A stretch of 64,000 nucleotides of DNA, taken from the IMG/VR virus record IMGVR_UViG_3300021375_000006. One strand, 5' to 3'. This document shows positions 426 through 51,286 of the stretch, piece after piece (within the stretch, counting starts at the first letter, position 1; each line of letters opens with the position of its first letter). A program made the position numbers and the translations under genes. Origin of the DNA: a virus (Duplodnaviria > Caudoviricetes). Below the pieces are notes generated by a model, which was given only the letters and a program-made list of their open reading frames with translations, was not told the DNA's origin and did no database searches.

Positions 426-441
426 ATATTTTTATTTAATT

Positions 442-470
442 GTTATAGTTAGATTTACTTATCTGTTTCA
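442..470 (-). promoter_or_regulatory. Class-2 promoter TGAAAC-N17-TATAAC
   Basis: Lies 17 nt upstream of the NTP pyrophosphatase ATG. Confidence 0.65.
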
Positions 471-1351: not shown

Positions 1352-2570
1352 AAAATTCTGCTACTTTTTTCTTATATGCTTCTACTGTTAAACCAGCTTC
1401 TGCAATTATTTTATCATCACTAGGATGGTGTTTCATTCCGTTAAATGTTTCTACTAGACCTAAGTCTAACATTGCCTTTTGTCTACCGAATGGATGGTCT
1501 TTAATTACTGAAGAATTCCATACGCCGTCCATATCAATATGTGCATAGTCAGCTCCTGGTCTCATGTAATTCTCAATCCATCTAATAAAGTCACATGCTA
1601 CGTCCTCTGCATTATACGGCAGAGAACCTGTCTGTTCATATATTTTTGTCATCACTGCATCTAGGAAAGGTTCTGATTTTTTACCTTTACCTTCTACGGG
1701 ATCTGCAAGGTAACCAATACATTCTATTGCATTCGTACCATAGTAGAACATTGATTCCCTGTTAACATACTGTGGAAACCAATCTGCTATATCTGCTAAA
1801 ACTGCTGCATATTGGAATTTATATTGTCTTAATCCGTTTGCAACATTCCAATCAAACATCCATTGACCCAATTCTCTTAGGTCTTTCTTACCACCCTCTT
1901 CTAAGAACTTAGCCATGTCTCTAGCTAAGCGTGGTGCGAATTCACATAGGAAATAGTCGCCGCCTCTCTTGTAAGTAAACTGAGGGCCTTCGAACCCCGT
2001 CATCCCAACAAAGACTTCCTCGTTTTGCTGTGGAATCGGGGGTTTTGGGAAAGCTGGGAATTGATACCCAACAGAAGTGTAGAATGACTTGGTTGCTGCT
2101 TTCACTTGCTCACACATTTGTTCTATAGAATCAGATTGCCACAAGTCGAATAGTAGCGTGTTGTGATAGCCACTTGGTTTAGTAGCATAGTTAATTGCAG
2201 ATCCACATACTCTGTGCAGGATGAATATGTAGAGCCATTCTGGTAGGCCGAAGACTTCTTGTTTACCGGTCCAATTGGTAGCGACATCTTTGCGCTGTTC
2301 CGTAACTAAACCAGCCTGCATTCTTGACCAATACGGATGTGCTTCAGTCCAACCGTAAAAAACATCATTCACGATTTGACTAAACCCAGCATACTTCCTT
2401 TCAACCACATCATACAGCTCGATATGTTCCATCAGCGGATCGTCCATCCCGGACTCGGCATGTGGAATGTGGCCTAGGTTACTCTTTTTCTGCTGGTCTA
2501 AGGCTAACTCATAATACCTGATAAACTCATCATAGTATTTAGTAGTCTTAATTTTACACGTCGTACTCAT
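1341..2570 (-). CDS. aGPT-PPlase / amino acid:DNA transferase-like helical protein (thymine hypermodification family)
   Basis: Motifs LYDVVERKYAG, FQYAAVLADIADWFP, YYGTNAIECI and NAEDVACDFIRW resemble the HhH-glycosylase-like aGPT-PPlase clades. It is adjacent to a PLP enzyme, as in known hypermodification clusters. Confidence 0.6.
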   Translation of the reverse strand: MSTTCKIKTTKYYDEFIRYYELALDQQKKSNLGHIPHAESGMDDPLMEHIELYDVVERKYAGFSQIVNDVFYGWTEAHPYWSRMQAGLVTEQRKDVATNWTGKQEVFGLPEWLYIFILHRVCGSAINYATKPSGYHNTLLFDLWQSDSIEQMCEQVKAATKSFYTSVGYQFPAFPKPPIPQQNEEVFVGMTGFEGPQFTYKRGGDYFLCEFAPRLARDMAKFLEEGGKKDLRELGQWMFDWNVANGLRQYKFQYAAVLADIADWFPQYVNRESMFYYGTNAIECIGYLADPVEGKGKKSEPFLDAVMTKIYEQTGSLPYNAEDVACDFIRWIENYMRPGADYAHIDMDGVWNSSVIKDHPFGRQKAMLDLGLVETFNGMKHHPSDDKIIAEAGLTVEAYKKKVAEFYGA

Positions 2571-2736
2571 TCACTTCTAGTATTTCCCAATTTAAGGCTC
2601 TCCGGTTTCTTTGATATTGTTCCATCGACCATTCAATATTGTCTGTTGTCAACTCAATAGTATATGGAGCATCTCCGCGACCGTAAGTTTTTTCTATTGC
2701 AAGATTAGGTGTTATTTTAATTTTATATGTTTTCAT
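2554..2736 (-). CDS. Hypothetical protein, 60 aa
   Basis: ORF track; overlaps both neighbours in the operon. Confidence 0.6.
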   Translation of the reverse strand: MKTYKIKITPNLAIEKTYGRGDAPYTIELTTDNIEWSMEQYQRNRRALNWEILEVNEYDV

Positions 2737-2909
2737 ATTTGGTTGCCAAGTATCTGTCTCGTATTTAATTCAGAAGCTATTGCAGCTGCTGCCGATAACA
2801 GATGATTAAGGTTATGCTTTAATAAACTATCAGAGATATTCTCATCTCCATAAGTCTGTAAACTATTATGTGCAATTTCTACACTTTGTTTAATACCGTT
2901 TATATCCAT
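2733..2909 (-). CDS. Hypothetical protein, 58 aa (MDINGIKQSVEIAHNSLQ...RQILGNQI)
   Basis: Found by hand below the track cutoff. Its TGA overlaps the next ATG (ATGA) and it fills the gap. Confidence 0.6.
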   Translation of the reverse strand: MDINGIKQSVEIAHNSLQTYGDENISDSLLKHNLNHLLSAAAAIASELNTRQILGNQI

Positions 2910-2919
2910 ATTATTATTT

Positions 2920-3084
2920 TTAATTATTCCATCTTCTTAAGATATTCCAAACAATTAATATATTACAAATTACAGCCTGTAATACAATAAGAGTCCTAAA
3001 TATCGCAACAGCATCTGCTTGTTTATCGTCCTCTCCGGCTTTTTCACCAAGCGCTCTTGCCCAGTACTTCCAAAGCTTTTTCAT
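2920..3084 (-). CDS. Small membrane protein, 54 aa (MKKLWKYWARALGEKAGEDDKQADAVAIFRTLIVLQAVICNILIVWNILRRWNN)
   Basis: Found by hand. Has one hydrophobic helix, and the WxxALGEKAG...AD.vA.fRT pattern resembles a small protein common in aquatic T4-like phages. Confidence 0.65.
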   Translation of the reverse strand: MKKLWKYWARALGEKAGEDDKQADAVAIFRTLIVLQAVICNILIVWNILRRWNN

Positions 3085-3085
3085 T

Positions 3086-4162
3086 TTAGAAAAGTGCTTG
3101 AGTTACTGGCTTTAATTTCTGATTGGGTTCATCTTTTACTAAATCCCAACGATAATACTCACGAGCGATATGAACTGACTTAGGCTTTTCCATTACGTCA
3201 AATGTTAACTCTCCAAAAGAGTTTAAAAAGACTGCTGGGTGTTGCCATGTTAACCATCCATTTCTCTCGCACATTGCTTCTACTAACTTGTTAAATTCTT
3301 TTACAAGTTCAGTTCTCTCTGCCCAAGTACCAGCAAAAGGAGTACCTTTATAGTAGCCGGTTTTTGGTAGAGGTCTAGACTCATTCTCAATTGGAAGAGC
3401 CTGAATAACTTCAATATTTTCGATTTCTAAATCGATTAATTGTTTTTCATAATTAGATACCATATCCTTTAAAGATTTCGATGGATTATCTTGTCTCATT
3501 AGGTGGTGTCTTATATCTATATTCCCTAGATATATGCGTAGTGTTGTAATATTTTCTGGTACATAAGATCTAATACCTCTTCTTAAAGTTCCAAAAAGAG
3601 TTAGGCCATCATGTCTATCAGTCATGTAGCCGGGTGTATATTGGCTAAAACTATGTGAGTCTCCAAAACAGAGTTTATCTGTATTTTGTATTCTATCTAC
3701 TTTAGGAATACTAGCACATATTGCCTTAGCTTCTTCTATTTGTGTCTCAAGTGTTTTAAAAAGATCTGAACCTGTCTTTAAACGTTTCTCAATTAGAGTA
3801 CCTACACAAGGCATATCATGGTGGAGCGAATACATTCGTATACCGGGAGCGAACATTCTAATGATTTGATGGTATAAGTCATCGTTCGCCCCACCGAAGA
3901 TATTAAAATTGCCTTTAAATTCCATTCCGTGTTCAATAAGAATCACGTCGAAATCGTCTGCCTTCCAAGCTGAGTTATCTGTAATTATAGAAACATTGGA
4001 GTAACCAGCATGTTTTAATTGATTTGCTAGATGGAATGCCCATCCAGATTTATGTGAAGTTAGTTTGCTACTAAGTTTTCCAACTAGTGCAGAAATACCG
4101 ACACGTATATTAGTGTCTTTCTCTAGATCTGTAAAATAGACTAGGTTATTATTTGTCTCCAT
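3086..4162 (-). CDS. Two-domain protein: T4 beta-glucosyltransferase-like N-terminal domain fused to an SGNH/GDSL-hydrolase-like domain
   Basis: N-half DFDVILIEH...FNIFGG...MYSLHHDMP recalls T4 BGT (DYDRLIVVN...INFFGG...IYYLFTDIRLP). C-half has FGDSHS, LGNIDIR and KPKSVH, matching SGNH blocks I, III and V. Confidence 0.5.
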   Translation of the reverse strand: METNNNLVYFTDLEKDTNIRVGISALVGKLSSKLTSHKSGWAFHLANQLKHAGYSNVSIITDNSAWKADDFDVILIEHGMEFKGNFNIFGGANDDLYHQIIRMFAPGIRMYSLHHDMPCVGTLIEKRLKTGSDLFKTLETQIEEAKAICASIPKVDRIQNTDKLCFGDSHSFSQYTPGYMTDRHDGLTLFGTLRRGIRSYVPENITTLRIYLGNIDIRHHLMRQDNPSKSLKDMVSNYEKQLIDLEIENIEVIQALPIENESRPLPKTGYYKGTPFAGTWAERTELVKEFNKLVEAMCERNGWLTWQHPAVFLNSFGELTFDVMEKPKSVHIAREYYRWDLVKDEPNQKLKPVTQALF

Positions 4163-4481
4163 ATCCAGCGTCTGCGTCAGTTAAATTAATTGGCTTTTCA
4201 GTTTCACCATAGCCATACTTCTTAATATAATTGTCAAGACCGCCGATGTATGCGACGGCATCTAGAAGATTATCTTCTTTATAGTTGTAAGAATGTCTGC
4301 TTAATTTAAGTGCGACAAGTGCTGCATACATATCGGAACCTGACCATTCTTTACCGGTCATTCCTGAACAGATCATCGCGGCACGTCTCATGCCTTCTTC
4401 GAAAGGACCGTACATACGTTCTTTCTCTTCGGATCTGTTGTTAATAATTTCGTCTGCTGTTTTTAGAATGTTCTTGCTCAT
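4149..4481 (-). CDS. DUF6378-like / dNTP diphosphohydrolase-like helical protein
   Basis: ILKTADEIINNR...RMYGPFEE...LVALKLSR...DNLLDAVAYI pattern; promoter at 4506-4534. Confidence 0.6.
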   Translation of the reverse strand: MSKNILKTADEIINNRSEEKERMYGPFEEGMRRAAMICSGMTGKEWSGSDMYAALVALKLSRHSYNYKEDNLLDAVAYIGGLDNYIKKYGYGETEKPINLTDADAGYGDK

Positions 4482-4505
4482 AAAATAACTAATTAAATCT
4501 TAATT

Positions 4506-4534
4506 ATTATAGAGAAGAATGCTAGTTTGTTTCA
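4506..4534 (-). promoter_or_regulatory. Class-2 promoter TGAAAC-N17-TATAAT
   Basis: Upstream of the 4481 start; shares an identical 18-mer (GAAACAAACTAGCATTCT) with the copy at 5241-5269. Confidence 0.7.
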
Positions 4535-5218
4535 CTAATTAATATTAATATGGATAATAACTTCGTTGTAGTATTCTAGGAAACGTTCGTTCCATAGGTT
4601 CCATTTAATATCAGTACCATCTATTGCATAAATTTCATGGTTAGGGAAAAGTTTAAGATATAAATCTCTAAAATGTCTGAATTTTTCTTTAGACTCTGGT
4701 GTGTTTAGATGCCACTCTCCGACTACAAAATCTACATTATCTTTTATCCAAAATAAATTATCGACGTTAAAAATATCATATTCTCCTCCTTCGCAATCTG
4801 TTTTTAAGAAGTTAATTCTATCAATATTATTTTCTTTTATTAGGGTATCGAACCTAATAGATGGTATTTCTATATTTTGTCCATTAGCACCAAATACTTC
4901 ACTAATAGTAATAGTACCATCTACTGGTCCGATACCCTTTTCAATAATGGTTACATTATCTTGGTATACATTTTCCTTTAGAGTCTCATGTTCTAAATGA
5001 GATGGCTCTACGCAAATAACTTGTTTTGGATCTTTATTAAGAATACTATATGTAAATGGACCGATGCTTGCTCCTATATCTAAAACAACATCATCGGCTT
5101 TTACCTCTCTAACCTGTTCATAACATTTATCAATAAAGATCTCTTGAACTAAAGAGTTTTTATGCATTTTAGCTAGATTGGTAAATTCGTCCATCCAGCC
5201 CCACTTAAAAATAGCCAT
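4535..5218 (-). CDS. FkbM-family SAM-dependent methyltransferase
   Basis: VVLDIGASIG (SAM-binding motif I), CVEPS, and FLKTDCEGGEYDI (FkbM KxDxEGxE). Confidence 0.85.
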   Translation of the reverse strand: MAIFKWGWMDEFTNLAKMHKNSLVQEIFIDKCYEQVREVKADDVVLDIGASIGPFTYSILNKDPKQVICVEPSHLEHETLKENVYQDNVTIIEKGIGPVDGTITISEVFGANGQNIEIPSIRFDTLIKENNIDRINFLKTDCEGGEYDIFNVDNLFWIKDNVDFVVGEWHLNTPESKEKFRHFRDLYLKLFPNHEIYAIDGTDIKWNLWNERFLEYYNEVIIHININ

Positions 5219-5240
5219 ATAATTTTATTGGTATTATCTA

Positions 5241-5269
5241 GTTATACTCAAGAATGCTAGTTTGTTTCT
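5241..5269 (-). promoter_or_regulatory. Class-2 promoter AGAAAC-N17-TATAAC
   Basis: Upstream of the FkbM start at 5218; near-duplicate of 4506-4534. Confidence 0.7.
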
Positions 5270-5945
5270 AGAGTTCGTAGATAACCGGGACTCCATTTTC
5301 AATACAAAGATACTCATAAGGAAGTGTATCAATAAAATAGTGGTTATCATCATAGTCAATTTGATGCATGTGTGTATGTCCAGCGATTTGAATAATAGTA
5401 TCATCAAGAGGATTACGTCTTAGTGCTTCAGGTCTAATCCACATTGGACCTTCACCATCATAATTACCATACATTTCCATACCGCTATGATTAAATGATC
5501 TTTTATCATAAGACCAAAGATCATTAATCTGTTCTGAAATATTACCATCTTCTGGGAAATTGGCTTTATACCATTCTTTCGAAACACCAGCATGTGTAAA
5601 TAAAAACTTATCTACTTGATATGCAACTTGTAAGTGGTGCTTATTTTCTCTTAATAGTTCACTAATTTCAGCTGCGTGCCAAGCACTCCAACCACCATAC
5701 CTTCCTCCACAATCTGCCATGTAATGGAAATCATGGTTACCAATCAACATAGTTACTTTAATCTTTGACGCTTCTTTCCACTCAATGATTTCTTTAAAAT
5801 TAAAAATACACTCCGCATGGTTTCTAGTAAAAGAATCAAAGTAATCTCCGATGAATACAAATTCAGTCGCATCGCCATGTGCCTGCATAACTTGCTTCCA
5901 CTTGTTACAGCCATGAATATCTCCGATAACTACAATCTTACTCAT
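5268..5945 (-). CDS. Calcineurin-like metallophosphoesterase
   Basis: GDIHG, GDYFD, GNHD, THAG and GHTH metal-binding motifs. Confidence 0.9.
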   Translation of the reverse strand: MSKIVVIGDIHGCNKWKQVMQAHGDATEFVFIGDYFDSFTRNHAECIFNFKEIIEWKEASKIKVTMLIGNHDFHYMADCGGRYGGWSAWHAAEISELLRENKHHLQVAYQVDKFLFTHAGVSKEWYKANFPEDGNISEQINDLWSYDKRSFNHSGMEMYGNYDGEGPMWIRPEALRRNPLDDTIIQIAGHTHMHQIDYDDNHYFIDTLPYEYLCIENGVPVIYEL

Positions 5946-6099
5946 TGTCTTTGTTTTTGTGTTTCTTCTTTCTTGAGTACTTGGTTTTATCAGGCACTGT
6001 TTGTTGTGTCATCTTCTTAGAAATATGATGTGCAGCCTCACCTGGAGACCATCCTCCGTTAAAGTCTAATTTGTCATCATGTTTCTTTTTCTTGTTCAT
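5938..6099 (-). CDS. Small, highly basic protein, 53 aa (MNKKKKHDDKLDFNGGWSPGEAAHHISKKMTQQTVPDKTKYSRKKKHKNKDNE)
   Basis: Found by hand. The ATG lies 1 nt after the conserved early-type promoter, and the stop abuts the next start. Confidence 0.6.
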   Translation of the reverse strand: MNKKKKHDDKLDFNGGWSPGEAAHHISKKMTQQTVPDKTKYSRKKKHKNKDNE

Positions 6100-6172: not shown

Positions 6173-7930
6173 TTATAGTGGCCAAATCATGGATGTGCCT
6201 GCATCATGCCATTCACTATACCACCCTTTTTTATTAAGTTCCTTTTCCCATTTGTTATCTACACCAAACGTTCTGTTCTTGTAGTCTTCAGAATAGTAGT
6301 CATAAATTTCTCTACCTTTATACTCATCGCCATTCTCACCTGAAACCCAGATACCACCTTGAGAACCGTTGAACTCTTCAGTAGTTCTTACAAAGTCCAT
6401 ATACTTTTCGATCCACTTAATCATAGCGTCTCTATCAAGTTTCTTTTCAGTAATAGGTTCTACAGATTCAAATGCAACTTCTTTATCAACTATTTCAAAA
6501 CTAACTGAATTATGAATACTTGTTTTTCTCTTCTTTTCTTTACCTTTACTTATTTCAACAAATGCTTCTTGTCCTCCAACTTCACCAGCAACTCTTTTAT
6601 AGAAATAACCATGCTCTGTTTTGATATATTCACCTACATTTACACTCATTGCCTCAGTAACTACAGATTCTGCAAATGCCTCAATATCCCACTGGATTCT
6701 TTGCATTGGGTCATCGTATGGGAATTCTTTCTCTACCCAGTCAATTAGACCTGGTTCAAACTCAGCGTTTTGAGCCATATCAAAAGCATTCTTCCAGCCA
6801 TCATTAGACGCTACATCCTCTAACCACTGGTCATACTTCTTTTGATTCCATCTCTTCATGGCTTTCTTTCTGTTCTTCTCAGCCTCTTTCTTCATGGCAT
6901 CTAATTTAGCCATGTCTGCTCTTCTAAGCTTATCTTGTCTTAGTCTGATTAGAACAGGATCGTTATAGTCCGTCGCCTCTGTCATCATTTCCTCTTGAGC
7001 GAACTTGTTATACTCTTTTGACCACTTCTTCCATTCAGCTGGAGTAGCATAATCTTCTAATACATCAACTACATCTCTGTTACCTTTTTGTTCAATAACT
7101 TGGTCTGCAATCCATCTACCTGCTTTTGCATTTAAGTAATAAAGTGCGCCTGCATCAGAGAATTTGTAAGATTCAGTTAACCATGCCATTGCAGAATGCC
7201 AGTTATCTTCAATCTCTCTACGTTTAAAACCTGCAAGTTCTAATGTACCCCAGAAACCATAGGCTTCATTTACATCGTCGATTGAGTATTGATTTTTCTT
7301 ACCGAACTTAAATGCTTCATTAACTAAAGATTCGCTAACAAAATTATTAAATTGTGTAAATAGTTTAAATCCTTCCATCTCTAGTTTCTTTTTTGTTTTG
7401 TCTTTTTTAGCCTCCTCTTCGTCATCATCAATATCTGCTACTGAAGGTACATCGCCAGAACCTATACCGCCATCAGAAGGTAGAACCACAGGGCCCATAC
7501 CGCCTATATTAGCACTAGGTGTAATATTTTGTGCTGCATGTGCAAAATCTTCATCCACAGCAACACCTCTCTTTTTTAAGATCTTTTCAATTTCTTGGTA
7601 AGCTCTCTTGTAATCAGATTTAGAGTAGTGCATTCCTTTAGCATAGTTAGCATAACCATCTAATGCTCCGTTATACATTCCTAGTAATTCTTCATCTGAC
7701 ATTTTATCATTGAATACAAATGGTCCAATAAATGCTTCATCTACCGTCTCTGGTAGTTTATCATGTTTTGTAGAAGCGTATTTCTTTAAGTCTTTCTTTG
7801 TCATTCCGTCTGATAATGATTTTACTTTGTCTCTATAAGCTGGGTCGATGTCTGAGATTTCCATATCACCGGATTTAACAGCGTATGCCATTCCCATTAA
7901 TCTTTGTTGTGACTTACTTACAGATGGCAT
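6173..7930 (-). CDS. Modular putative internal-head polyprotein with an N-terminal DUF3008-like domain
   Basis: N-terminus MPSVSKSQQRLMGMAYAVKSG...KKYASTKHDKLPE is DUF3008-like. Small domains are separated by VDE/VNE/MTE/VTE/ITE linkers, and there is an internal FTQFNNFVSESLVNE motif. Confidence 0.55.
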   Translation of the reverse strand: MPSVSKSQQRLMGMAYAVKSGDMEISDIDPAYRDKVKSLSDGMTKKDLKKYASTKHDKLPETVDEAFIGPFVFNDKMSDEELLGMYNGALDGYANYAKGMHYSKSDYKRAYQEIEKILKKRGVAVDEDFAHAAQNITPSANIGGMGPVVLPSDGGIGSGDVPSVADIDDDEEEAKKDKTKKKLEMEGFKLFTQFNNFVSESLVNEAFKFGKKNQYSIDDVNEAYGFWGTLELAGFKRREIEDNWHSAMAWLTESYKFSDAGALYYLNAKAGRWIADQVIEQKGNRDVVDVLEDYATPAEWKKWSKEYNKFAQEEMMTEATDYNDPVLIRLRQDKLRRADMAKLDAMKKEAEKNRKKAMKRWNQKKYDQWLEDVASNDGWKNAFDMAQNAEFEPGLIDWVEKEFPYDDPMQRIQWDIEAFAESVVTEAMSVNVGEYIKTEHGYFYKRVAGEVGGQEAFVEISKGKEKKRKTSIHNSVSFEIVDKEVAFESVEPITEKKLDRDAMIKWIEKYMDFVRTTEEFNGSQGGIWVSGENGDEYKGREIYDYYSEDYKNRTFGVDNKWEKELNKKGWYSEWHDAGTSMIWPL

Positions 7931-7931
7931 A

Positions 7932-8474
7932 TTATTTTCCGTCTATTTGAATAACTTCGTTATCTCTAATTTCAAGATTGTTGTTACCAACTGATTCATC
8001 ATATTCACCGTAAATAACTTCACTTTTAGATGCTAATGGAGAATTCATCATTCCAGTCTTATCTATTTTTCTAGCGAATTTTTTACCGTTAACATCATCC
8101 ATAAAGCCTACGTTAATTACTACTTCGTATGAAAGATATAATGTGTTGTCCGGGTCTATATCATTTAAACCATTAACCTCATCTATAGCGAATCCATTAA
8201 AAAGATTGGCAGTAACAAATAAGATACCATCCATGCCACCTGCTCCTTTTTCTACTTGATCTAAAATGATCTTCTTAGCTTTATCTTCAAACTTAGCCCA
8301 CTCTTTATTAACTTCTTCTTGAGTTACTACATTAATACCTTCGTATTTTACTGTTTTAATTTCTTGTTTAAACGCTTGCATTACTTTACCTACAAGACCT
8401 TTAGCCGCGTAGATACCAGTCATTCTATATGACTTCTCGTTTAGGAATTGTTCGAATGTTGGAATTGTTTTCAT
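7932..8474 (-). CDS. Putative capsid-targeted protein, 180 aa
   Basis: Starts MKTIPTFEQFLNE, compared with the T4 capsid-targeting sequence MKTYQEFIAE. Confidence 0.55.
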   Translation of the reverse strand: MKTIPTFEQFLNEKSYRMTGIYAAKGLVGKVMQAFKQEIKTVKYEGINVVTQEEVNKEWAKFEDKAKKIILDQVEKGAGGMDGILFVTANLFNGFAIDEVNGLNDIDPDNTLYLSYEVVINVGFMDDVNGKKFARKIDKTGMMNSPLASKSEVIYGEYDESVGNNNLEIRDNEVIQIDGK

Positions 8475-8491
8475 ATCTTATATTAGTTTTA

Positions 8492-10864
8492 TTACCAAGC
8501 GTAATCGAACTTCTCGATCTTGTTTATTCTTTCTTTAATTTGTTTCGCGTAGTTCTTAGATTCTCTTTCGTAGTAAGATTCTTTTTCGCCATATCTAGCT
8601 TCAGATTCTTCTGCTTGTCTAATGTAATCTACATATCTAGAATAGTCATCTAAAATATTTGACATGTGTTGAGATGCATCTTTTGCTTTTACTTCTTTAC
8701 CTTTTGCGTTTTCACCAATTTTGATTTCTTGGTATCTAGTCTTCTCACCTTTTGCTAAACCATCTGAGATTTGCTTAGCCAGTTTATCGATTGCATCTGC
8801 TACCATTTTATCTAGTGGTAAGCTTGCAGCTTTATTAGCTAAGATCTTGTGGTATCTATTTTGGTTAGCCTCTTTAAAGTCTTTATCAGATTTGAATGCT
8901 GTTGCACCGGCTTTAGCTTCTGCTCTTGCACTTCTTAATTGGTCAGTAGAATACTTTTGTCTAATTAATTCTAGGTTAATAACAATAACTCTATCGGACA
9001 TCTCTGCAATTCTCTTACCGTTGTTAAGACCTGATGCACCCCAACCCCTGTATTTGTGGTTGATACCGATTTGACCCTCAGAACCTTTTTTCTCTTTAGA
9101 CCAAGATCTACCACCTGACCATCTTGACCATTCATTAGCATAGAATTGTCTGTCACCAGACATAGCTGCTAATACAATACCTCCACCAGGAACCATTTTA
9201 TAGTCATTCCATGATCCGTTGTTATGGTCATAGTATGGATTTTCTTTCTCGTTATCTGAGATAAAGAAAAGTACGTGGCTTGAACCGCCGTAGTTTTTAA
9301 ATATCTTTGATACATCGTTGCTAATAATAAAATCTTCATCTTCGATTTTATCAAGAGCTACTTTAGATAGGTTGTAAAAACCTTTAGCTAAATTAGAAAG
9401 ATTTTTCTTACTTTCTTTACCCTCTCTACCGTTCGATAGAACTGTTCTTAATATAGAGGATTTGATTGCTTCGTTAAGAAAGTTAGCTCCAACGAAGTCG
9501 CTAAATGACTCAAACAAGTTTATTTCGTTTTTCATATTTGTATTTTCTTCTAGTTTTTTAGCAGCTAAATCTTTATCTCTTTTGGATACGTTATCTAGGT
9601 AAGAGCCGTCTCCCCAGAATTTAACAACTAATTCAGTTTGAGTAGTTGAATGCATACCTGGTTTGTAAACTGCAATATCTCTTAATTTCTTGTTAGAAGC
9701 AATGGTTTGCTTCATGAAGTCAAGAGCTTGTTTCTCGTTTCTAAACTTTTTCATAGCACTTACACCGTCACTATAGATAACTTCATAGTTTTCAGTAACT
9801 GCAGATTCTTCTAAATATAAGTTTACATATTTACTACCTTTTTCTGAGTAAATTGAAGTAATTTTAAAATCACCTTTAATTGATTTACCAGTATCTTTTT
9901 TATACCAATCTGCATAATAAGCTTTAAAGAATAAGTTTGGTTCTAGTTCTCCAAAGAAGTGTGAAAGTTTACCTAAATAAAATTCAGCTTTAGGATATAC
10001 TTTTAAAATATCTTTTTCTGTTTCAGCATCTAGAACTGCTTTATCAAATTCTTTTACAAATTTAGCTTCAGTAACTTTTGACTCATCCACTCTCTTGATA
10101 GTATCGTGGAACCAATCTTCTGGCTCATCTCTATAATCAGTGTAAACATCAATTTCCCATTCATCACCGAATTGGTCAACGCCAACATAATACCAATCTT
10201 TGCCCTCGTTACCGTGGTCGTCAATAATATCACCTTGGTCAAACTCTACTTCATACTTCTTACCACCATCTTTAAATTCAATATATGGGAATTTATCTTT
10301 AGTAACTTTGATCTTCTCGTTTACTACTGACTCTTCGATATACTCGGCTAAATCTGGATCGTCCCATCCAAGTTCTGGATCTGCTAGTACTTTTTCAAGA
10401 TCCTTTCTCTTACCCTGCATTGTGATAACTGGAGTACCACCGCCTGGACCGTCCATTACTTTATTGATAATCTTAACTTTATTCTTCTTTAAGAATTTTA
10501 AGAAGTCTTTATCATCAGGGTTAATTGCATCCATCTCTACTGTAGCCTCAAATACCTCAGCAGCTTTAGGAGTTTCATCTAGCTCAGCTAGAATTCTACG
10601 TCCCCATTTTGAAAGCTTTACACCATCTTCAGAAACATTAAAGTACTTTCTATTTCTAGAAGCCCATTGATTTGAACTAGTAGATAATTCAGAAAGAATC
10701 TTATTGAATTCTTCTCTTGTTACCACGCCATCTGCAATTGCCTGTAAGACTGCGTTTCTTACGCTAGCAGTTTTACCTACAGTTTGAGCAGGGTGGTTCT
10801 CTGTATATTTTCTTTTGATTTGCAATTTCTTGCCTTCCGATAAAAAGTCTTCGAAGTTTATCAT
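8492..10864 (-). CDS. Modular putative internal-head polyprotein, 790 aa
   Basis: Starts MINFEDFLSE; linkers ESVVNE, ESKVTE and ESAVTE; internal LFESFSDFVGANFLNE. Confidence 0.55.
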   Translation of the reverse strand: MINFEDFLSEGKKLQIKRKYTENHPAQTVGKTASVRNAVLQAIADGVVTREEFNKILSELSTSSNQWASRNRKYFNVSEDGVKLSKWGRRILAELDETPKAAEVFEATVEMDAINPDDKDFLKFLKKNKVKIINKVMDGPGGGTPVITMQGKRKDLEKVLADPELGWDDPDLAEYIEESVVNEKIKVTKDKFPYIEFKDGGKKYEVEFDQGDIIDDHGNEGKDWYYVGVDQFGDEWEIDVYTDYRDEPEDWFHDTIKRVDESKVTEAKFVKEFDKAVLDAETEKDILKVYPKAEFYLGKLSHFFGELEPNLFFKAYYADWYKKDTGKSIKGDFKITSIYSEKGSKYVNLYLEESAVTENYEVIYSDGVSAMKKFRNEKQALDFMKQTIASNKKLRDIAVYKPGMHSTTQTELVVKFWGDGSYLDNVSKRDKDLAAKKLEENTNMKNEINLFESFSDFVGANFLNEAIKSSILRTVLSNGREGKESKKNLSNLAKGFYNLSKVALDKIEDEDFIISNDVSKIFKNYGGSSHVLFFISDNEKENPYYDHNNGSWNDYKMVPGGGIVLAAMSGDRQFYANEWSRWSGGRSWSKEKKGSEGQIGINHKYRGWGASGLNNGKRIAEMSDRVIVINLELIRQKYSTDQLRSARAEAKAGATAFKSDKDFKEANQNRYHKILANKAASLPLDKMVADAIDKLAKQISDGLAKGEKTRYQEIKIGENAKGKEVKAKDASQHMSNILDDYSRYVDYIRQAEESEARYGEKESYYERESKNYAKQIKERINKIEKFDYAW

Positions 10865-10866
10865 AA

Positions 10867-11250
10867 TTATGCTTTAATTTTTGCTAGTTTACCCTGTTTC
10901 TCTTCATACTGGAATGAGAACTTAGACTTTGCGAAAAGTGTTCCCATTGAGAATGAGACATAAACTCCGTCTGGTTTTTTCATAGCAGTCTTATATGCTT
11001 CTGCTGCAGCAGCCTCATCGTCAAAAATACCAATGTATTGTTTCTTGCTACCACCATTCTCTAGTCTAATTCTTTGACCATAGAAGTCTACTTCATTGTG
11101 AGCAAATACTAAATACTTTGTATTACCTTTTTCTGGTAGGTTGTCGCTATGCTCTCCAAATGAAGTTCTATCATTGTAGTAGTAAGAACCAAATTGAATA
11201 GACTCATTTACTGAATCTCTGAAGCCTTCGAATGTTTTTATGTTTTTCAT
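10867..11250 (-). CDS. Putative capsid-targeted protein, 127 aa
   Basis: Starts MKNIKTFEGFRDSVNE; late-type motif GAATATATA at 11271-11279. Confidence 0.5.
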   Translation of the reverse strand: MKNIKTFEGFRDSVNESIQFGSYYYNDRTSFGEHSDNLPEKGNTKYLVFAHNEVDFYGQRIRLENGGSKKQYIGIFDDEAAAAEAYKTAMKKPDGVYVSFSMGTLFAKSKFSFQYEEKQGKLAKIKA

Positions 11251-11269
11251 ATTAATATGCTATATTTGT

Positions 11270-13129
11270 TTATATATTCTTTAAAAAATCATCGAAGGTT
11301 AGGAATTCTGGTTGTGCAGATTCTGCAGCAACACCCATCGAGTCTTCTAATTTCATTTTAAGTTCTCCATACATACCATGTATATCCTTAGGAGTTAATT
11401 TCTTAAATAGTCTTTCGTCACCATCAAGCATTGCGTTTCTAACCTGAGTTGCTGAAATATTCTTGCCTGATCTTGGAATTTCAAATAAACCAAAATCGTC
11501 TCTTACACCTAGATCGTCTCTGTATTCTTGTTTATCTGCTTGATAACTATAGACTTTCATTCTATCAGTTCCAGTTCCCCATAATACTGGCTCGTATTGT
11601 GGTCTTAATTCATTAAACATTTTATCAATTGCTGCAGTAGGTAAAATCTTTACATCTTCAATTGGATAAGAAGATTTTAATTTTTGTAACATTGATAGTT
11701 GAGTCTCTTCGTCGTAAGGTCTCTTGAATGCATCTTCTGCTTTCTTAGTTTTAGACTTAATTAAAAAGATAACTACTGGATAACCGTTTTGTTTATAGAT
11801 AGTTTCAATAACTTTAGCGTGTCCTAATGTAAATGGTTGAAATCTACCAACAAACATATTTACAGGCTTCTTACCTTGATCTTTATACTTAACAGTTAAG
11901 CCTTCCATGATTGGACTAACTTGAGCTGAAATTTTTTGGTTTAATAAATATTGTTTAAAATCCATTACGTCTGATTCATTTGCTTTTGCCATTATTAAAC
12001 CCTCAATGGTTTCAACGATCTCGTTGATCTGCTCCATTAAATCTTTATTAATAAGGTCGGTTTCTTTAGTTCTCTTTTTTCTAAAAGAGCCTAATACAAT
12101 CTTAAATAACTCAGATAATATCTTATCTTGTACTAAAGTAAGTGTCTTTTCGTTTTGAATAAACTTATTATTTAATTCAAACATAGGAGATTCAGAAAAG
12201 TCTGCAGAGTCAAATTTAGCACCAATATATTTTGTAGCATTTTTTTCTACATAATTATTAAAAATAGATGACATTAATTCTAAATATCTTCTATCTACCT
12301 TTCCTTCTTTTAATTCTATTGATGAGAAATCAAATTGTACTAAATGTTCTACAACATCTAAAATTGTAATTTGATACATGTCTGATGGTTTTCTTGGATC
12401 CATCGGTTTTTTATTAAACTTCTCTAATTTAAAAGATTGTAATTCTGTTCCGTCATGAAAATTAATAATAAACCCTGCAACATCTTTTGAAAGATCGTTC
12501 ATTAAAGCAGATTGCTTCATATTCTCATTAAAAATACCGAATACTGTTCTTGTAAAGCTAGGCTTCTCAAAGTCTTCAAATGTCTGTTCAAATTCATTAA
12601 CCGACATTGCAAGAATTTGTTTTAATCTATCCTTTTGACCTGAGTCAAGTTGACCTTCAAATAATATAGGTGGTTTTGAAACATTTAGTTTATCCGCCCA
12701 CTTATTAAGTATTTTGGTATCTCTAATTACCTTTCTAACTTTATTAGGATTAGATGGTTGTAAAACTTGTATATGCGTTAAAATTAAATTTGATTCTGGT
12801 AAAACATCATACTCCACATCAATTGTTTTATTATCGCCAAGATATTCAAATCCAAACTTCCAGTCAAATGGCATATCTTCTATAACTTCTTTAGAAACAG
12901 ACTTAAAGTGGCGAATTGCGTTCTCATAGTATCTGACAATTGTACGATCTACTATATCCATTGGTTGCTTAGAACCAGATTTATAGTATGCAAAATCAGT
13001 ACCTTGTCTTCTTGCATGAAAAGATGAACCGTTGATTTTCTCAGTCACAATACATTTGTGGTTAAGTAGTTTATCAACGTCTGCTGTGTTAGCTCCTTCG
13101 AAATATGTTTTTAAATTGTCTAATGCCAT
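11270..13129 (-). CDS. RNA-ligase-like nucleotidyltransferase domain fused to an HIGH-family cytidyltransferase-like domain
   Basis: N-terminal VTEKINGSS (ligase motif I variant). C-terminal FVGRFQPFTLGH and RSGKNISATQVR (HIGH/KMSKS-like motifs). Confidence 0.7.
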   Translation of the reverse strand: MALDNLKTYFEGANTADVDKLLNHKCIVTEKINGSSFHARRQGTDFAYYKSGSKQPMDIVDRTIVRYYENAIRHFKSVSKEVIEDMPFDWKFGFEYLGDNKTIDVEYDVLPESNLILTHIQVLQPSNPNKVRKVIRDTKILNKWADKLNVSKPPILFEGQLDSGQKDRLKQILAMSVNEFEQTFEDFEKPSFTRTVFGIFNENMKQSALMNDLSKDVAGFIINFHDGTELQSFKLEKFNKKPMDPRKPSDMYQITILDVVEHLVQFDFSSIELKEGKVDRRYLELMSSIFNNYVEKNATKYIGAKFDSADFSESPMFELNNKFIQNEKTLTLVQDKILSELFKIVLGSFRKKRTKETDLINKDLMEQINEIVETIEGLIMAKANESDVMDFKQYLLNQKISAQVSPIMEGLTVKYKDQGKKPVNMFVGRFQPFTLGHAKVIETIYKQNGYPVVIFLIKSKTKKAEDAFKRPYDEETQLSMLQKLKSSYPIEDVKILPTAAIDKMFNELRPQYEPVLWGTGTDRMKVYSYQADKQEYRDDLGVRDDFGLFEIPRSGKNISATQVRNAMLDGDERLFKKLTPKDIHGMYGELKMKLEDSMGVAAESAQPEFLTFDDFLKNI

Positions 13130-13137
13130 AATAGTTT

Positions 13138-14409
13138 TTATCTACCGTATTTAATAATACCCATTAACTGGTTAATAGCGGCAAAAGTTCCAGTTAACTT
13201 GAATGTTTTACCATTGTATTTAAAGACTAGGCCTTCTGTTGGAATGATTGACTCAATACCGCCGATACCTTCTAGTCTCTTTAATTCTTTTTCTACTTTC
13301 TCAATTTGTTTTAGATCTCCGTTCTTTTTAACTTTGTCAGCTTCAGTTCTGATTTGCTTATGTAATCTTGCTTTCTCAGCCTCTGGGTTAGCAGCAACAA
13401 AATTAGAAACGTTCTTTAAAACATCTGCACCTAATTCTAAAAATAGGTTCTCGAAAGGTAGAATGTTTTCTTTATACTTCTTATTTCTTTGACCATCAAA
13501 ATCTTTGACAGCTTTTGCTTGTTCTGGAGTAACTGCTTTCTTTAAGTCTCTCATATTTAGAGTCTTCTTGTCTAAGTATGCCCATCTTAATAGAAGTCCT
13601 TCTTTTAATACTGGGTCTAAATCCCCAAAGTTCTCTTCGATTTGGTTTCTCCACCAAGCCTCGTGATACATTTTAACCTCATCTTGATCTGATAGACTAT
13701 AAGTATCTCTTAGTTTATTTATCGCCTTTTCGTAATAGCCGACTCTCTCATCAAAGTTAATATCTTTTCCTAACTTTAAAATTTGAGGGGGAATTATTGT
13801 AAAGGTCTTTTGCACATCAGCTTTTAACTCTCTAAGTGCTTTTACAATCTCACCTGCAATATTCTCTTCACCTATGATATTACCAGCACCATCAGTAACT
13901 TTCATACCGTGGAATTGAATAACATCTCTGTCATAATAGATTACATTAGGATTCTTAGAGTAAATTAGCTCCATGTTGATAAATGAGTTACCATCTTGGA
14001 ATACAGATTGGTCCTTAAGCTTTGGGAGCGCATCTGCTAGATCTTTAGCAGCAAAGATAAATGTTTCTTCAACCAGCTTTGAAGCATGGCCAGTAAACAT
14101 CTTAATGATACCATTTAGGTCGAGTGGATTAGCTAGTTGCCCTTTATTTCTAGCGAACATAGCTTTACCATCTTTTACAGTTGCAAATACATTCTGACCA
14201 TCTGTCTTTTCAGTTGGTGCCTCTTCAAAATCAAGACCTCCTTGTAGTGCAGACTTTACAATTCTCTTGAAATCTGCAAACGTTAATGAGTGGTCATCGA
14301 ATGGGTGCATCATGTGACCAGCGGCACCACCTTCAAATACGAAATTGTCCAAGTTATTGACCTGGACTTTCTCGTTTAAGAATTCTTTAAATGTATATAG
14401 TTTCTTCAT
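13138..14409 (-). CDS. Ligase-fold (KxDG) nucleotidyltransferase-like protein with a capsid-targeting N-terminus
   Basis: MKKLYTFKEFLNE; EGGAAGHMMHPFDD; motif I TEKTDGQN; motif IV/V EGLVFKYNGKTFKLTG. Confidence 0.55.
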   Translation of the reverse strand: MKKLYTFKEFLNEKVQVNNLDNFVFEGGAAGHMMHPFDDHSLTFADFKRIVKSALQGGLDFEEAPTEKTDGQNVFATVKDGKAMFARNKGQLANPLDLNGIIKMFTGHASKLVEETFIFAAKDLADALPKLKDQSVFQDGNSFINMELIYSKNPNVIYYDRDVIQFHGMKVTDGAGNIIGEENIAGEIVKALRELKADVQKTFTIIPPQILKLGKDINFDERVGYYEKAINKLRDTYSLSDQDEVKMYHEAWWRNQIEENFGDLDPVLKEGLLLRWAYLDKKTLNMRDLKKAVTPEQAKAVKDFDGQRNKKYKENILPFENLFLELGADVLKNVSNFVAANPEAEKARLHKQIRTEADKVKKNGDLKQIEKVEKELKRLEGIGGIESIIPTEGLVFKYNGKTFKLTGTFAAINQLMGIIKYGR

Positions 14410-14428
14410 AAGAAGTTTTAGATTGTTT

Positions 14429-15967
14429 TTATCCTAATGATGATTGTAATGCACCAACTGCTGCACCATAGTCACCGTCGTGTTTAGTTAATAAACCGTC
14501 TACTACTTCTTGAGCTTTTTCTTCATCGAATTCGTCACCGAACGCTTGTTGTAAAACTGAGAATGCATACTCTTTAAAATCTTCGTCTGATTTTACTTCA
14601 GCTTCGTTAGTAGCTTCTTCAGCAACTTCTTCAGTTTCTTCTACTTCTTCAGTTTCTTCTACTTCTTCAGTCTCTTCAACCTCTTCAGTTTCTTCTACTT
14701 CTTCAGTCTCTTCAACCTCTTTAGTTTCTTCTACTTCTTCACCTTCTTCAGTAGCTTCACCTTCTTCGTGGTGTGCTTCTTCAGTAGATTCTGTTTCTTC
14801 TTCAACTTCTTCTCCCTCTTTAATTACAGGATAAGTCTTACCGTTAAACTCAAACTTTTCAGCATCTTCTTCGATTGCTTTAGCTCTTGCGGCTAAAAAA
14901 GCGTTACCTTCATTCATCACAGACTCGTTAGCCCAGATTAATTCAAATGCATCTACAATTTTTTGAGCAGTATCACCATGTCCGAATCCATCTAAGAATA
15001 ATGCCATACCTTCAACGATACCAATACCTGACCATCCAGCTGCATTAGCTAGACCAGAGTAATGTTCGTCTAATAGGTTAATGATTGATTTTTTACCAAC
15101 TGGAACTGACATTCCACCTAAATTATCGATGTCTACCATAATAGTAACAATCTTACCACCTAGTGCTTTACTTACTGGATCTCTATATCTGTGGAAGTTA
15201 GCGTCTGTTAGGGCTTCAGCTAATAAGTATCTACAAACACCTAATAAAAGTGGTCCGTCCATTAATGCAGTATGGTTCGTAAAGAATGATTCTAACCATT
15301 TAGCAACTTTCTTAGCGTCTCTTGCATTACCTTTACTTGGTTTAAATGCTTCATTAATAATTAGTGACTCAAATGCTGGAATTAATTCTTTATCTCCATA
15401 TACATCTGCCATATACCATTTGCCATCTCTTTCATCAAATAGGTAAACGAATTCTGCTCCTGCTCTATCGCTAGCATCAGAAATATAATCGTCGACTTTC
15501 TTAACATCACCTTTTAGTGTTGTTTTATCTCCGTAGAAATTAATCTTACTTGGATCTGCTTCCAAACCTGAGCCACCCCCTTTCTTAAGTAAAAACTTAA
15601 CTGTTCCGGAGTTCATGTAACCCTTCTTAATTGTAGGTAACATGTGGTCTGGATAACCATCGTAGTGCATATACACTGACTCTATTTTTCCTCTTTTAGA
15701 AATAATACCAACTTGTGATCTGGTACCTTCTTCAATGATAGCTAAAGACTCAGATACTTCAGAAGCACCTAGCTTAGCAAAAAATTTGTTTCTATCTTCT
15801 TCGTTTAAATCTTTTACAGATGTAACGCCGAACTCAGATAATAATGTTTCGAATTGGTAAGCTGACTCTGTACGAGCTACTTTTTGTTCTTCTTCTAATT
15901 TCATTTTTGCTGCTTTAGCGGAAGCATTAGCGAAATCTTCAAAAGACTGTAGTTTTAATGAACCCAT
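14429..15967 (-). CDS. Modular putative internal-head / scaffold-like protein with a Glu-rich repeat
   Basis: MGSLKLQSFEDF; a domain GTRSQVG...VYMHYDGYP of a type common in phages; linkers ESLIINE and ESVMNE; (EETEEV)n tract. Confidence 0.5.
   Translation of the reverse strand: MGSLKLQSFEDFANASAKAAKMKLEEEQKVARTESAYQFETLLSEFGVTSVKDLNEEDRNKFFAKLGASEVSESLAIIEEGTRSQVGIISKRGKIESVYMHYDGYPDHMLPTIKKGYMNSGTVKFLLKKGGGSGLEADPSKINFYGDKTTLKGDVKKVDDYISDASDRAGAEFVYLFDERDGKWYMADVYGDKELIPAFESLIINEAFKPSKGNARDAKKVAKWLESFFTNHTALMDGPLLLGVCRYLLAEALTDANFHRYRDPVSKALGGKIVTIMVDIDNLGGMSVPVGKKSIINLLDEHYSGLANAAGWSGIGIVEGMALFLDGFGHGDTAQKIVDAFELIWANESVMNEGNAFLAARAKAIEEDAEKFEFNGKTYPVIKEGEEVEEETESTEEAHHEEGEATEEGEEVEETKEVEETEEVEETEEVEETEEVEETEEVEETEEVAEEATNEAEVKSDEDFKEYAFSVLQQAFGDEFDEEKAQEVVDGLLTKHDGDYGAAVGALQSSLG
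14625..14740. repeat. 18-nt tandem repeat encoding EETEEV, about 6 units
   Basis: Unit acttcttcagtttcttct with synonymous variants, seen directly. Confidence 0.9.
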
Positions 15968-16003
15968 TTTTATTAAATTTATTTTTAATACTTTACTATT
16001 GTA

Positions 16004-17512
16004 TTATATATCACCGTCAAAAGTCACATTTTTTACCTCAAACGGGAACTTCTGTTCCTTATAGATCTTTTGACGCGCTTTGGCATGTCGAATGAGATAG
16101 TTATCCCAGTCTGGTGATGATAAGTCATCTACGAAATCAATGATATTTACCTCTGATTTTGTGTGGTGTTTTCTTAACCCTCTACCGATTGATTGTCTAA
16201 TTATGACTTCCGATTTAAACGATTCGGTAAAGAAGATATTATGTATTTTCTTAATCGAGATCCCTGTTGAGAACGTACCATAAGAGGCAACAATGACAAC
16301 CTGCGCGCCTGCTTCCATCTTCTTCTTGTATTCTTCACGGATGTCCTTGTCGGTATTACCATCCACATAATAGATGGGTTTGTCACTATCTTGGCGCAGT
16401 TTCTCATAAATTCTTTTGCCGTGTTCGATTCGGTGGAAAAGAACAAGGCTATTCCCACGTACTCTGGAAATAATGTTGCAAATGAAAGCCAAGCGCCCTG
16501 TTGAATTGATGACATAATTACTTTCAAATCTGAAAACGTCTTTACTTTCATATCTGTTTTGGGACATCTCATAAAAAGCATTCTTTGTGCTTTGAGGTGC
16601 ATAATCCATTTTTATTACTTTCACATTACAACCTGCAATGTGACCTTCATCTTGAAGGAATGCCGCATTGACCTCTGTAATTACAGGGCCTGTATGTGCC
16701 ATTAGGGTTAATCTATCTAACGTCTTTGCTTTTGGAATTGTCCCCGAGAGTCCAAATCGATAGTTTGCAGCAGTACATTTTTGTAGAATTGTTTTAATAG
16801 AGGTAGACTTAGCCTTGTGAGTCTCATCGATAATTACAGCGTCAAACTGTTCAAAATATTCTTTGTCTTTCTTAACAAGAGATTGATACGTACCAATTAC
16901 CATGTTTCTACCCGGTCTAATCTTTTGACCAGAATAGATCTGTTGTACCTTAATATTCGTTGCATTACGCCAGTTATAGTCCATAAAGTCCTCAGAGGCC
17001 TGTACAACTAACGAAACGTTTGGGACGATAAGTAATATCCTTCCAGCCTTGCCCTTCTCTAACATATACGCAATAGCCATATACGTTATCAAGGTTTTAC
17101 CAGCTGATGTGGCTAACTCACTTAGACATCTTCTAAATTTTAGAATATTATATGCCGCTTCAATTTGATAATCTCTTGGGTTTAATTCATGGCCATCAAA
17201 GTAGTCTTCTGCCCATTTTGTAAACTCTTCTTGTTTTACCGAAGGGTCGAATAGTGTGGTTACACCATTCATCTTTAACTCGAACTTATATTGTTTACAC
17301 AGATCCATCACCTCTTTCCAAAGTCCAGATGGAATCCACTTATCATCCTTAATATAGGAGATATAGCCATCCCATAGACCTTTCTTCACAAGAGGATGAA
17401 AGCGCCAGTTTTCAATTCTACGATTAAATGTGATATTGAGTTGTTCTATTTCTAGTTCACTCGCCTCATCAATACGCAGAAACTGCTTATTATCTGTTAA
17501 ACTCAGTTCCAT
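16004..17512 (-). CDS. uvsW: UvsW-like superfamily 2 DNA helicase
   Basis: LATSAGKT (Walker A), IIDETH (DExH), GLSGT, ASYGTFSTGISIK, QSIGRGLRK. Length 502 aa, adjacent to uvsY. Confidence 0.92.
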   Translation of the reverse strand: MELSLTDNKQFLRIDEASELEIEQLNITFNRRIENWRFHPLVKKGLWDGYISYIKDDKWIPSGLWKEVMDLCKQYKFELKMNGVTTLFDPSVKQEEFTKWAEDYFDGHELNPRDYQIEAAYNILKFRRCLSELATSAGKTLITYMAIAYMLEKGKAGRILLIVPNVSLVVQASEDFMDYNWRNATNIKVQQIYSGQKIRPGRNMVIGTYQSLVKKDKEYFEQFDAVIIDETHKAKSTSIKTILQKCTAANYRFGLSGTIPKAKTLDRLTLMAHTGPVITEVNAAFLQDEGHIAGCNVKVIKMDYAPQSTKNAFYEMSQNRYESKDVFRFESNYVINSTGRLAFICNIISRVRGNSLVLFHRIEHGKRIYEKLRQDSDKPIYYVDGNTDKDIREEYKKKMEAGAQVVIVASYGTFSTGISIKKIHNIFFTESFKSEVIIRQSIGRGLRKHHTKSEVNIIDFVDDLSSPDWDNYLIRHAKARQKIYKEQKFPFEVKNVTFDGDI

Positions 17513-20411: not shown

Positions 20412-20504
20412 GTCAATTGTACTTTTGTTTATTATACATATTATATATCTGAATTTAGATTTGTTTCTTCATAATATGTTAATAACTTTTTTGCAAAAAA
20501 ATGC

Positions 20505-21061: not shown

Positions 21062-21124
21062 GTGCCTTAACATGCTAAAAAAATAGCTAGATATATAATA
21101 CATAGATAAACAAATTATATAGAA

Positions 21125-51235: not shown

Positions 51236-51286
51236 GTTAAGAGTATGATATTACTTTTGAATATATATCAAACTCTGTTGGGATAG

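Follow-up and report, generated by a model that had tools for sequence, protein, structure and literature searches.

The 64,000-nucleotide stretch of DNA analysed here (hereafter the window; IMG/VR record IMGVR_UViG_3300021375_000006, Caudoviricetes) carries, at positions 6173-15967, a cluster of seven consecutive open reading frames (ORFs). All seven lie on the minus strand at the coordinates given in an initial annotation made from the sequence, and together they encode 3,236 amino acids (aa). Three of the ORFs are long chains of modules joined by a recurring short linker, and most of the seven begin with peptides resembling the capsid-targeting sequence (CTS) of phage T4. Here we describe the cluster and its relatives, which point to a locus whose products would be packaged in the phage head after release from polyproteins by the head protease.

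Results

The first gene of the cluster (14429-15967) encodes a 512-aa polyprotein, in which an N-terminal region starting MGSLKLQSFEDF and ending ESLAIIEE (aa 1-80) is followed by module N (aa 81-206, PHROG 1987 family, ending ESLIINE), module O (aa 207-353, ending ESVMNE) and an acidic C-terminal part with EETEEV repeats (aa 354-512). Position 2 of the profile of the free-standing PHROG 1987 family aligns to residue 81, immediately past ESLAIIEE. The 790-aa polyprotein (8492-10864) opens with a CTS-like peptide (aa 1-10), continues through module A (aa 11-97), a spacer (aa 98-106) and, divided at predicted cuts, modules B (aa 107-183), C (aa 184-266), D (aa 267-358) and E (aa 359-440), and closes with an internal CTS-like segment, NTNMKNEINLFESFSDFVGANFLNE (aa 441-465, nucleotides 9470-9544), and the 325-aa C-terminal domain F (aa 466-790, nucleotides 8495-9469). 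Judged by its sequence, the segment 441-465 looks like the N-terminus of a formerly separate domain F gene. The 585-aa polyprotein (6173-7930) consists of a DUF3008 region (aa 1-65, ending VDE), module H (aa 66-200), with low-complexity sequence and the internal CTS-like FKLFTQFNNFVSE-SLVNE (nucleotides 7316-7369), and modules I (aa 206-318), J (aa 319-426), K (aa 427-495) and L (aa 496-585).

Two of the remaining genes each join a targeting peptide to a single module: the 127-aa protein (10867-11250; MKNIKTFEGFRDSVNE, aa 1-16, with a 111-aa module) and the 180-aa protein (7932-8474; MKTIPTFEQFLNE, aa 1-13, with a 167-aa module). The 423-aa protein (13138-14409) has the targeting peptide MKKLYTFKEFLNE (aa 1-13) and a 410-aa enzyme-like body, which contains the KxDG-type motif EKTDGQN and has its look-alikes in viral DUF6267 clusters; its gene stands beside the polyprotein genes in all relatives. 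The 619-aa protein (11270-13129) has two parts, an N-terminal half with a KxNG motif and a cytidylyltransferase/NMNAT-like C-terminal half (aa ~420-605), and it carries an internal targeting-like MDFKQYL...PIME at aa 389-420 and the C-terminal tail FLTFDDFLKNI. With MDFKQYL...PIME/G standing between its halves, this ORF looks like a fusion of two formerly separate targeted genes.

Scans of all seven ORFs against Pfam and PHROG returned DUF3008, CTP_transf_like and unnamed PHROGs only. Because the ligase-like halves of the 423- and 619-aa ORFs had no sequence match to solved ligases, their ligase reading comes from the KxDG and KxNG motifs only. Segmentation of the seven genes gives ~20 putative mature products, in line with the 15-20 first proposed, with four to seven modules per long ORF. 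The initial annotation had described chains of unrelated domains of 50-100 aa; unrelated modules joined by linkers are indeed present, and their sizes were revised to 69-147 aa plus the one 325-aa C-terminal domain.

An F-x-x-F motif stands at the N-terminus of five of the seven ORFs, and in four of these an aliphatic-x-Glu site follows directly or within a few residues. The T4 CTS is MKTYQEFIAE (PMC8442874), in which residues 4 and 7 serve targeting and residues 8 and 10 serve processing (PMC9026906). Its register, aromatic(4)-x-x-aromatic(7)-aliphatic(8)-x-Glu(10) in an N-terminal propeptide of ~10-20 aa, was found as a strict or near match in four ORFs (MKTIPTFEQFLNE, MINFEDFLSE, MKKLYTFKEFLNE and, with a longer spacer, MKNIKTFEGFRDSVNE); FEQFLNE, FEDFLSE and FKEFLNE place the two aromatic residues, the aliphatic residue and the Glu as the T4 peptide does. 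Internal copies occur as FTQFNNFVSE in the 585-aa ORF, FESFSDF...FLNE in the 790-aa ORF and MDFKQYL at residue 389 of the 619-aa ORF. The N-terminal and internal copies, the C-terminal FLTFDDFL and the likeness to the T4 CTS, all claimed at first reading, are thus borne out.

The seven ES-type linkers of the initial annotation were likewise all found, each with a predicted cut after its final Glu and each on the minus strand: ESVVNE (10316-10333), ESKVTE (10067-10084) and ESAVTE (9791-9808) in the 790-aa ORF, ESLVNE (7316-7333) and ESVVTE (6653-6670) in the 585-aa ORF, and ESVMNE (14909-14926) and the seven-residue variant ESLIINE (15350-15370) in the 512-aa ORF. The cluster has six copies of the pattern ES-x-[LIVM]-[NT]-E, compared with 0.043 expected (5,000 shuffles, maximum 2), and the 17,440 aa encoded elsewhere in the window have one; with the seven-residue variant the count is seven, compared with 0.068 expected. 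Further module boundaries carry cut-type sites that lack the ES, namely LDE97, VFE106, LEE440 and LNE465 in the 790-aa ORF, VDE65, MTE318 and ITE495 in the 585-aa ORF and IEE80 in the 512-aa ORF. The cut-site motif (L/I/V)-x-E is present at every predicted site, and all four [LIVM][NT]E tripeptides of the 790-aa ORF sit at module boundaries.

With the 790-aa ORF as the query, profile-free HMMER searching of 1.84 billion cluster representatives recovered 649 relatives at E <= 0.001, 466 of them at E <= 1e-10, and the ends of BLAST segments cluster at residues ~97, 183, 266, 358, 441 and 465 of the query. When the first residues of modules A, C, D, E and F were projected onto the best 150 of the 649 relatives, [LIVMF]-x-E lay within two residues of the module start at 191 of 194 junctions (98%), compared with 13% at random positions in the same proteins. 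At 139 internal junctions Glu was invariant as P1, P2 was N in 72 cases and T in 34, and P3 was V (70), L (35), I (33) or M (1); the sequence upstream of these sites varies among the proteins. As had been suggested, the linkers fit the T4-type (L/I/V)-x-E rule, and in hundreds of relatives they mark module boundaries. Within 75 domain F sequences, [LIVM][NT]E occurs 11 times (25.7 +/- 4.9 shuffled) and [LIVM]-x-E 188 times (256.5 +/- 13.5 shuffled), a depletion relative to shuffle controls that ignore secondary-structure sequence biases. The 41 window proteins outside the cluster show no such depletion (38 vs 32.5 +/- 5.6 and 289 vs 246.8 +/- 12.7, respectively). Avoidance of the cut motif inside domain F is the pattern that protease-exposed cargo should show.

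The same data bear on a reading in which the long ORFs act uncut, as multidomain proteins of the polyvalent type, and ES-x-V-(N/T)-E is a favoured flexible linker spread by duplication and recombination, be the proteins packaged or not. Chains of 2-15 domains are known among polyvalent phage proteins (PMC5512222), and cleavage of the proteins described here is a prediction. However, the internal linkers end in V/I/M-(N/T)-E and so share P3 and P1 with the site that closes the N-terminal targeting peptide, module starts follow [LIVMF]-x-E whatever their neighbours, and the motif is depleted within domain F. The Pfam and PHROG scans of the seven ORFs also returned no polyvalent hallmark domains and no embedded peptidase. 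Moreover, synonymous codons differ among the seven linker copies, and because the codons vary at silent positions, it is the peptide and not the DNA that is conserved in the linkers. We regard action of the uncut chains as quite unlikely, and cleavage at the linkers as the better account of these sites.

The modules also occur alone and in other arrangements. Stand-alone relatives comprise P0150 (103 aa), in which Met and targeting peptide (MKHVKLFEQFITE) precede module D, and targeting peptides joined to module B (P0146), to module E (P0103, P0134) or to domain F (P0114, P0088, P0101). The same cluster stands in the same place in nine related IMG/VR loci, and two more distant lineages (ENA, JGI) retain the slot, with helicase, polyprotein, 423-type, 619-type, polyprotein, DNA-modification and polymerase genes in succession. 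The 790-type gene reads A-B-C-D-E-F in the window and in L001, A-C-..-D-..-F in L003, A-C-..-F in L004, A-C-D-E-I-F in L006 and B-A-D-E-..-F in L007. In L003 and L006 module B is found in the 512-type gene, and module I, present in the 790-type gene of L006, is a module of the 585-aa ORF in the window. The L007 protein starts directly with the first residues of module B (MATVTMDA...); L009 has no 790-type gene on the locus and carries module D in its 512-type gene. Modules have thus been gained, lost, reordered and moved among the three polyprotein genes in related contigs, with breaks at the linkers, and in each rearranged case the alignments place the onset of homology at the residue after the linker Glu. 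The initial annotation had taken a lack of such shuffling in homologues as evidence against its proposal, and had also suggested that the linkers may serve as shuffling joints. Homologues do shuffle modules at the linkers; the idea of joints acting at the DNA level is weakened by the silent-position variation among the seven copies, which rules out a fixed DNA recombination site in this phage. Breaks at the linkers may instead result from selection for intact, releasable modules.

An AlphaFold model of the whole 790-aa ORF (109-row alignment) had a mean predicted local distance difference test score (pLDDT) of 80.2. Confident domains were modelled at residues 25-97, 107-175, 268-352, 359-438 and 466-790, with flanking domains scoring 83-98, and segments with pLDDT <50 at 11-19, 98-102, 176-194, 242-266, 353-358 and 439-462. 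Of the eight predicted cuts, six fall within or border these low-confidence segments; the remaining two (106/107 and 465/466) are at domain edges, in blocks of intermediate confidence, and the first strand begins at residue 107 in module B and at 360 in module E. In the model, every predicted cut of the 790-aa ORF would fall between folded domains; linkers inside such domains had at first reading been held to count against the proposal. Domain F modelled alone (75-row alignment) reached a pLDDT of 87.6 and had no Pfam, PDB-sequence or significant fold match (Foldseek against PDB and BFVD, VIA-align wide, AFDB clusters and ESM Atlas). Weak rows suggesting a papain-like domain F were dismissed, the family having no conserved Cys or His, and matches to its C-terminal helical bundle (Z 7-8.7) were judged generic. 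For module A, Foldseek indicated a likeness to winged-helix DNA-binding domains (the DNA-binding domain of CggR, the N-terminal domain of T4 MotA, and PadR) at a probability of 0.9-0.99 and a root-mean-square deviation of 3.2-4.0 A over ~72 columns, with E-values that are not significant, and we tentatively assign the module to this fold on the basis of the model. A feature search of ESM Atlas with module A and domain F gave no match.

In the long propeptides of phiKZ and SPN3US, several cut sites help to clear the pieces from the head (PMC5694885, PMC9026906). By analogy, only domain F and its equivalents might become mature head proteins here, with the upstream modules forming a multiply cut, scaffold-like propeptide that is degraded and expelled. 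Domain F is the most conserved part and always C-terminal, and the acidic end of the 512-aa ORF resembles the scaffold of relatives in composition, a likeness that is not significant. On the other hand, modules A-E are conserved and, with the exception of C, confidently folded in the model, they also occur as stand-alone targeted ORFs without F, and the 585- and 512-aa polyproteins have no F at all. Mature IPI and IPII of T4, whose sizes are similar to those of the modules here, are retained in the head. A disposable propeptide is, in our judgement, unlikely, and we favour retention of the modules as cargo.

A head protease of the required type was detected in relatives. In two of them, G002 (101 kb) and G003 (60 kb), a single contig bears both the orthologous cluster and a Peptidase_S77 match (PF03420, T4 gp21) above the Pfam cut-off (E 8e-15 and 4e-15, respectively), the protease lying 20-35 kb away. 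The nearest virus record, G001, is a 31-kb fragment without coverage of the cluster and gave no protease match. The head module of G002 has the order portal, a 112-aa protein starting MKIIKTFEEFIQE, a protease-scaffold fusion, the capsid protein and a further ORF. Eleven [LIVM][NTSQ]E sites lie in the long acidic scaffold of the fusion, the capsid protein starts MANLINE/AEI...GINE/S, and the ORF after the capsid gene has ...KLFEEF... near its start. As a side observation, the gp21-type protease and the very acidic scaffold-like region of G002 (L013, 6743-8929) share one 728-aa ORF; in T4, genes 21 and 22 encode protease and scaffold separately. Beside its EETEEV repeats, the acidic C-terminal part of the 512-aa ORF (14432-14908, minus strand) contains the string TEEAHHEE, which is also found in the protease-fused acidic scaffold of G002. 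A relationship between this acidic tail and the scaffold was rejected as compositional, the BLAST comparison being not significant.

The cultured T4-like cyanophage S-SCSM1 provides a link to virion proteins. The DUF3008 head of the 585-aa ORF matches its ORF93 at 49% identity, and ORF93, annotated as a virion protein in the record, ends TFKEFLEYIE. The NMNAT encoded by ORF91, which has been detected in purified virions by mass spectrometry, starts MKSFLQFLKE and shares 27% identity with the C-domain of the 619-aa ORF; ORF89 starts MDSKTFNSLSE and ORF90 starts MATVAETLLALNE. The S-SCSM1 paper noted NMNAT-like proteins as recurrent in cyanophage virion proteomes and made no connection to targeting peptides. 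The conserved C-terminal FLTFDDFLKNI of the 619-aa ORF resembles the C-terminal TFKEFLEYIE of the S-SCSM1 DUF3008 protein, a likeness that may point to targeting peptides at C-termini.

A candidate promoter, GATATATAAT (16003-16012, minus strand), stands shortly before the first gene of the cluster. The decamer GATATATAWT has seven matches in the window (16003-16012, 20440-20449, 21090-21099, 29067-29076, 51260-51269, 52596-52605 and 62619-62628), compared with 1.35 expected, and always stands just upstream of a gene in the correct orientation; besides the cluster's first gene, these are genes for tail fibres and baseplate and a few small ones. The decamer is a candidate phage promoter element, possibly late, in place of the T4 late promoter TATAAATA, whose use here was rejected because it is under-represented (4 matches vs 13 expected). 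That the decamer is common to the cluster and to tail genes hints at co-expression with virion genes.

The genes immediately upstream of the cluster, on the same strand and with short gaps, encode a gp32-like single-stranded DNA-binding protein (SSB), a primase and a UvsW-like helicase. This neighbourhood, the ligase-like and nucleotidyltransferase-like enzymes within the cluster and the C-terminal position of the motif in the 619-aa ORF would fit a third reading, in which F-x-x-F serves another interaction, such as docking to a sliding clamp or another replication or repair factor, and the cluster is an early or middle replication-associated module, not virion cargo. The motif, however, heads the small gene between portal and protease in G002 and the virion-proteome NMNAT of S-SCSM1, and the cluster shares its upstream decamer with tail genes; a replication-associated role would also leave the cut-type linkers, and their depletion inside domains, unexplained. 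We consider it very unlikely compared with a role as virion cargo.

The 64-kb window as a whole has a G+C content of ~34%, with nearly all genes on the minus strand; besides this T4-type replication set, it contains a contractile-tail and baseplate module. The top GenBank match of its helicase is an uncultured 462-kb phage, at 55% identity. Related IMG/VR contigs of 34-101 kb are estimated to be 10-33% complete, and therefore the genome should be roughly 300 kb. DNA nearly identical to the window was found in seawater, marine and marsh metagenomes from 14 studies, metatranscriptomes among them. No match to the cluster or the 790-aa ORF was obtained in 50,697 GenBank phage records (megablast, tblastn), and only the DUF3008 head of the 585-aa ORF matched cyanophages. 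On the other side of the cluster, positions 1-6099 (minus strand) encode a methyltransferase-like ORF, a metallophosphoesterase and further ORFs, and the counterpart in relatives has DUF6378, AGT-like and epimerase-like genes; this looks like a DNA-modification operon that differs among relatives. Outside the cluster, a separate 123-aa gene (23089-23460, minus strand), which starts MKTFNDYLVE, adjoins the tail-fibre genes and is kept in L009, probably encodes a further capsid-addressed protein. The C-terminus of this protein is hydrophobic and rich in Gly and Ala (LVGAALGAAMGKRF), and its product may be membrane-active as well as capsid-addressed.

Discussion

We propose, with a probability of about 0.7, that the cluster is the T4-type internal-protein locus of a marine T4-like jumbo myophage of ~300 kb, with cargo modules strung together and then freed by the head protease. 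Under this proposal, the T4-type targeting peptide (aromatic-x-x-aromatic-aliphatic-x-Glu) would bring the proteins into the prohead scaffolding core, where a gp21-type (Peptidase S77) prohead protease would cut after the Glu of (V/L/I)-(N/T)-E, removing the targeting peptide, and the same protease would divide the products of the three long ORFs at the ES-x-V-(N/T)-E linkers. Seven genes would in this way yield ~20 mature proteins of ~70-150 aa, together with the 325-aa domain and two or three enzyme-like proteins, and these products would stay in the head and leave it with the DNA. Modules acting early in infection, in DNA binding, host takeover or counter-defence, are a speculative extension of the proposal.

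Several points weigh against this interpretation. That the products are packaged, cut in vivo, kept in the head and ejected is inferred from sequences and a structure model. The protease is attributed to the window phage through relatives that share ~55-90% identity in the cluster, its own head module lying outside the window, and the cluster itself stands among replication and DNA-modification genes, outside the head module. The start of the 512-aa ORF, MGSLKLQSFEDF, is a partial match to the targeting register and has no aliphatic-x-Glu site directly after it, the 585-aa ORF has no targeting motif at its N-terminus, and the 619-aa ORF also lacks an N-terminal copy. Module C was modelled poorly, and the blindness of the shuffle controls to secondary-structure biases tempers the depletion of cut motifs. 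No module of the 790-aa ORF was found in any of the GenBank phages searched. In addition, no module matched a known effector or anti-defence family, and the only fold match was that of the tentative winged-helix module, so that the anti-defence or takeover effectors of the initial annotation find no support here.

The closest known counterparts are IPI, IPII, IPIII and Alt of T4. Both systems have a short N-terminal peptide in the MKTYQEFIAE register and a cut, predicted here, after the Glu of an aliphatic-x-Glu site. In both, the cargo genes, putative ones here, are scattered outside the head module and hypervariable between relatives, and enzymes may belong to the cargo (Alt in T4, NMNAT-like proteins here and in cyanophages). 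In contrast, T4 internal proteins are single-module ORFs with one cut next to the targeting peptide, whereas the present cluster has up to six or seven modules per ORF, a standardized ES-x-V-(N/T)-E linker and modules that move between ORFs, and has no sequence similarity to the mature T4 proteins. The S-SCSM1 proteins ORF91 and ORF93, homologous to the NMNAT-like and DUF3008 regions, similarly carry a targeting-like peptide at the N- or C-terminus, but they are single-domain ORFs and not polyproteins.

As is proposed here, giant phages such as phiKZ, 201phi2-1 and SPN3US cut many head proteins at several Glu sites with a T4-related protease (gp175/gp245) and carry a large protein cargo in the head. 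The phiKZ-type motif is, however, S/A/G-x-E; the V, L or I at P3 here agrees with T4. The multiple cuts of the phiKZ type lie in long propeptides thought to be cleared, whereas the pieces here are conserved, folded and found as stand-alone genes as well. Polyvalent proteins, which occur in phages and in conjugative elements (Iyer et al. 2017, PMC5512222), likewise combine many unrelated domains per polypeptide in variable architectures and are predicted, as are the proteins here, to be packaged and delivered with the DNA. They differ in having recognizable effector domains (ART, MuF, ParB-like, lysozyme), none of which was found in the cluster, and in their proposed processing agent, an embedded zincin-like peptidase, whereas the linkers described here fit cleavage in trans by the head protease. 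We found no description of targeted polyproteins of this kind in searchable papers, T4 CTS biology, phiKZ/SPN3US processing and polyvalent proteins being the closest.

More broadly, and as a tentative view that we hold with somewhat less than even confidence, the cluster may represent a plug-and-play cargo system widespread in marine and freshwater T4-like jumbo phages. Any module placed behind a head-protease linker in a targeted polyprotein would become cargo, one peptide would load many proteins in fixed ratios, and free exchange between genes and phages would maintain an arms-race toolkit of injected takeover and counter-defence factors. If the proposal is correct, the head protease would, beyond capsid maturation, work in the manner of viral polyprotein strategies and dispense many small virion proteins from few genes. 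A large unannotated metagenomic family, with 649 cluster representatives for one ORF, would be explained, and a simple sequence rule would predict the injected proteome of uncultured T4-like phages; there would also be a catalogue of small modules that are all candidate first-minute effectors. The grammar of linker and targeting peptide could also serve for loading several proteins into T4-type capsids.

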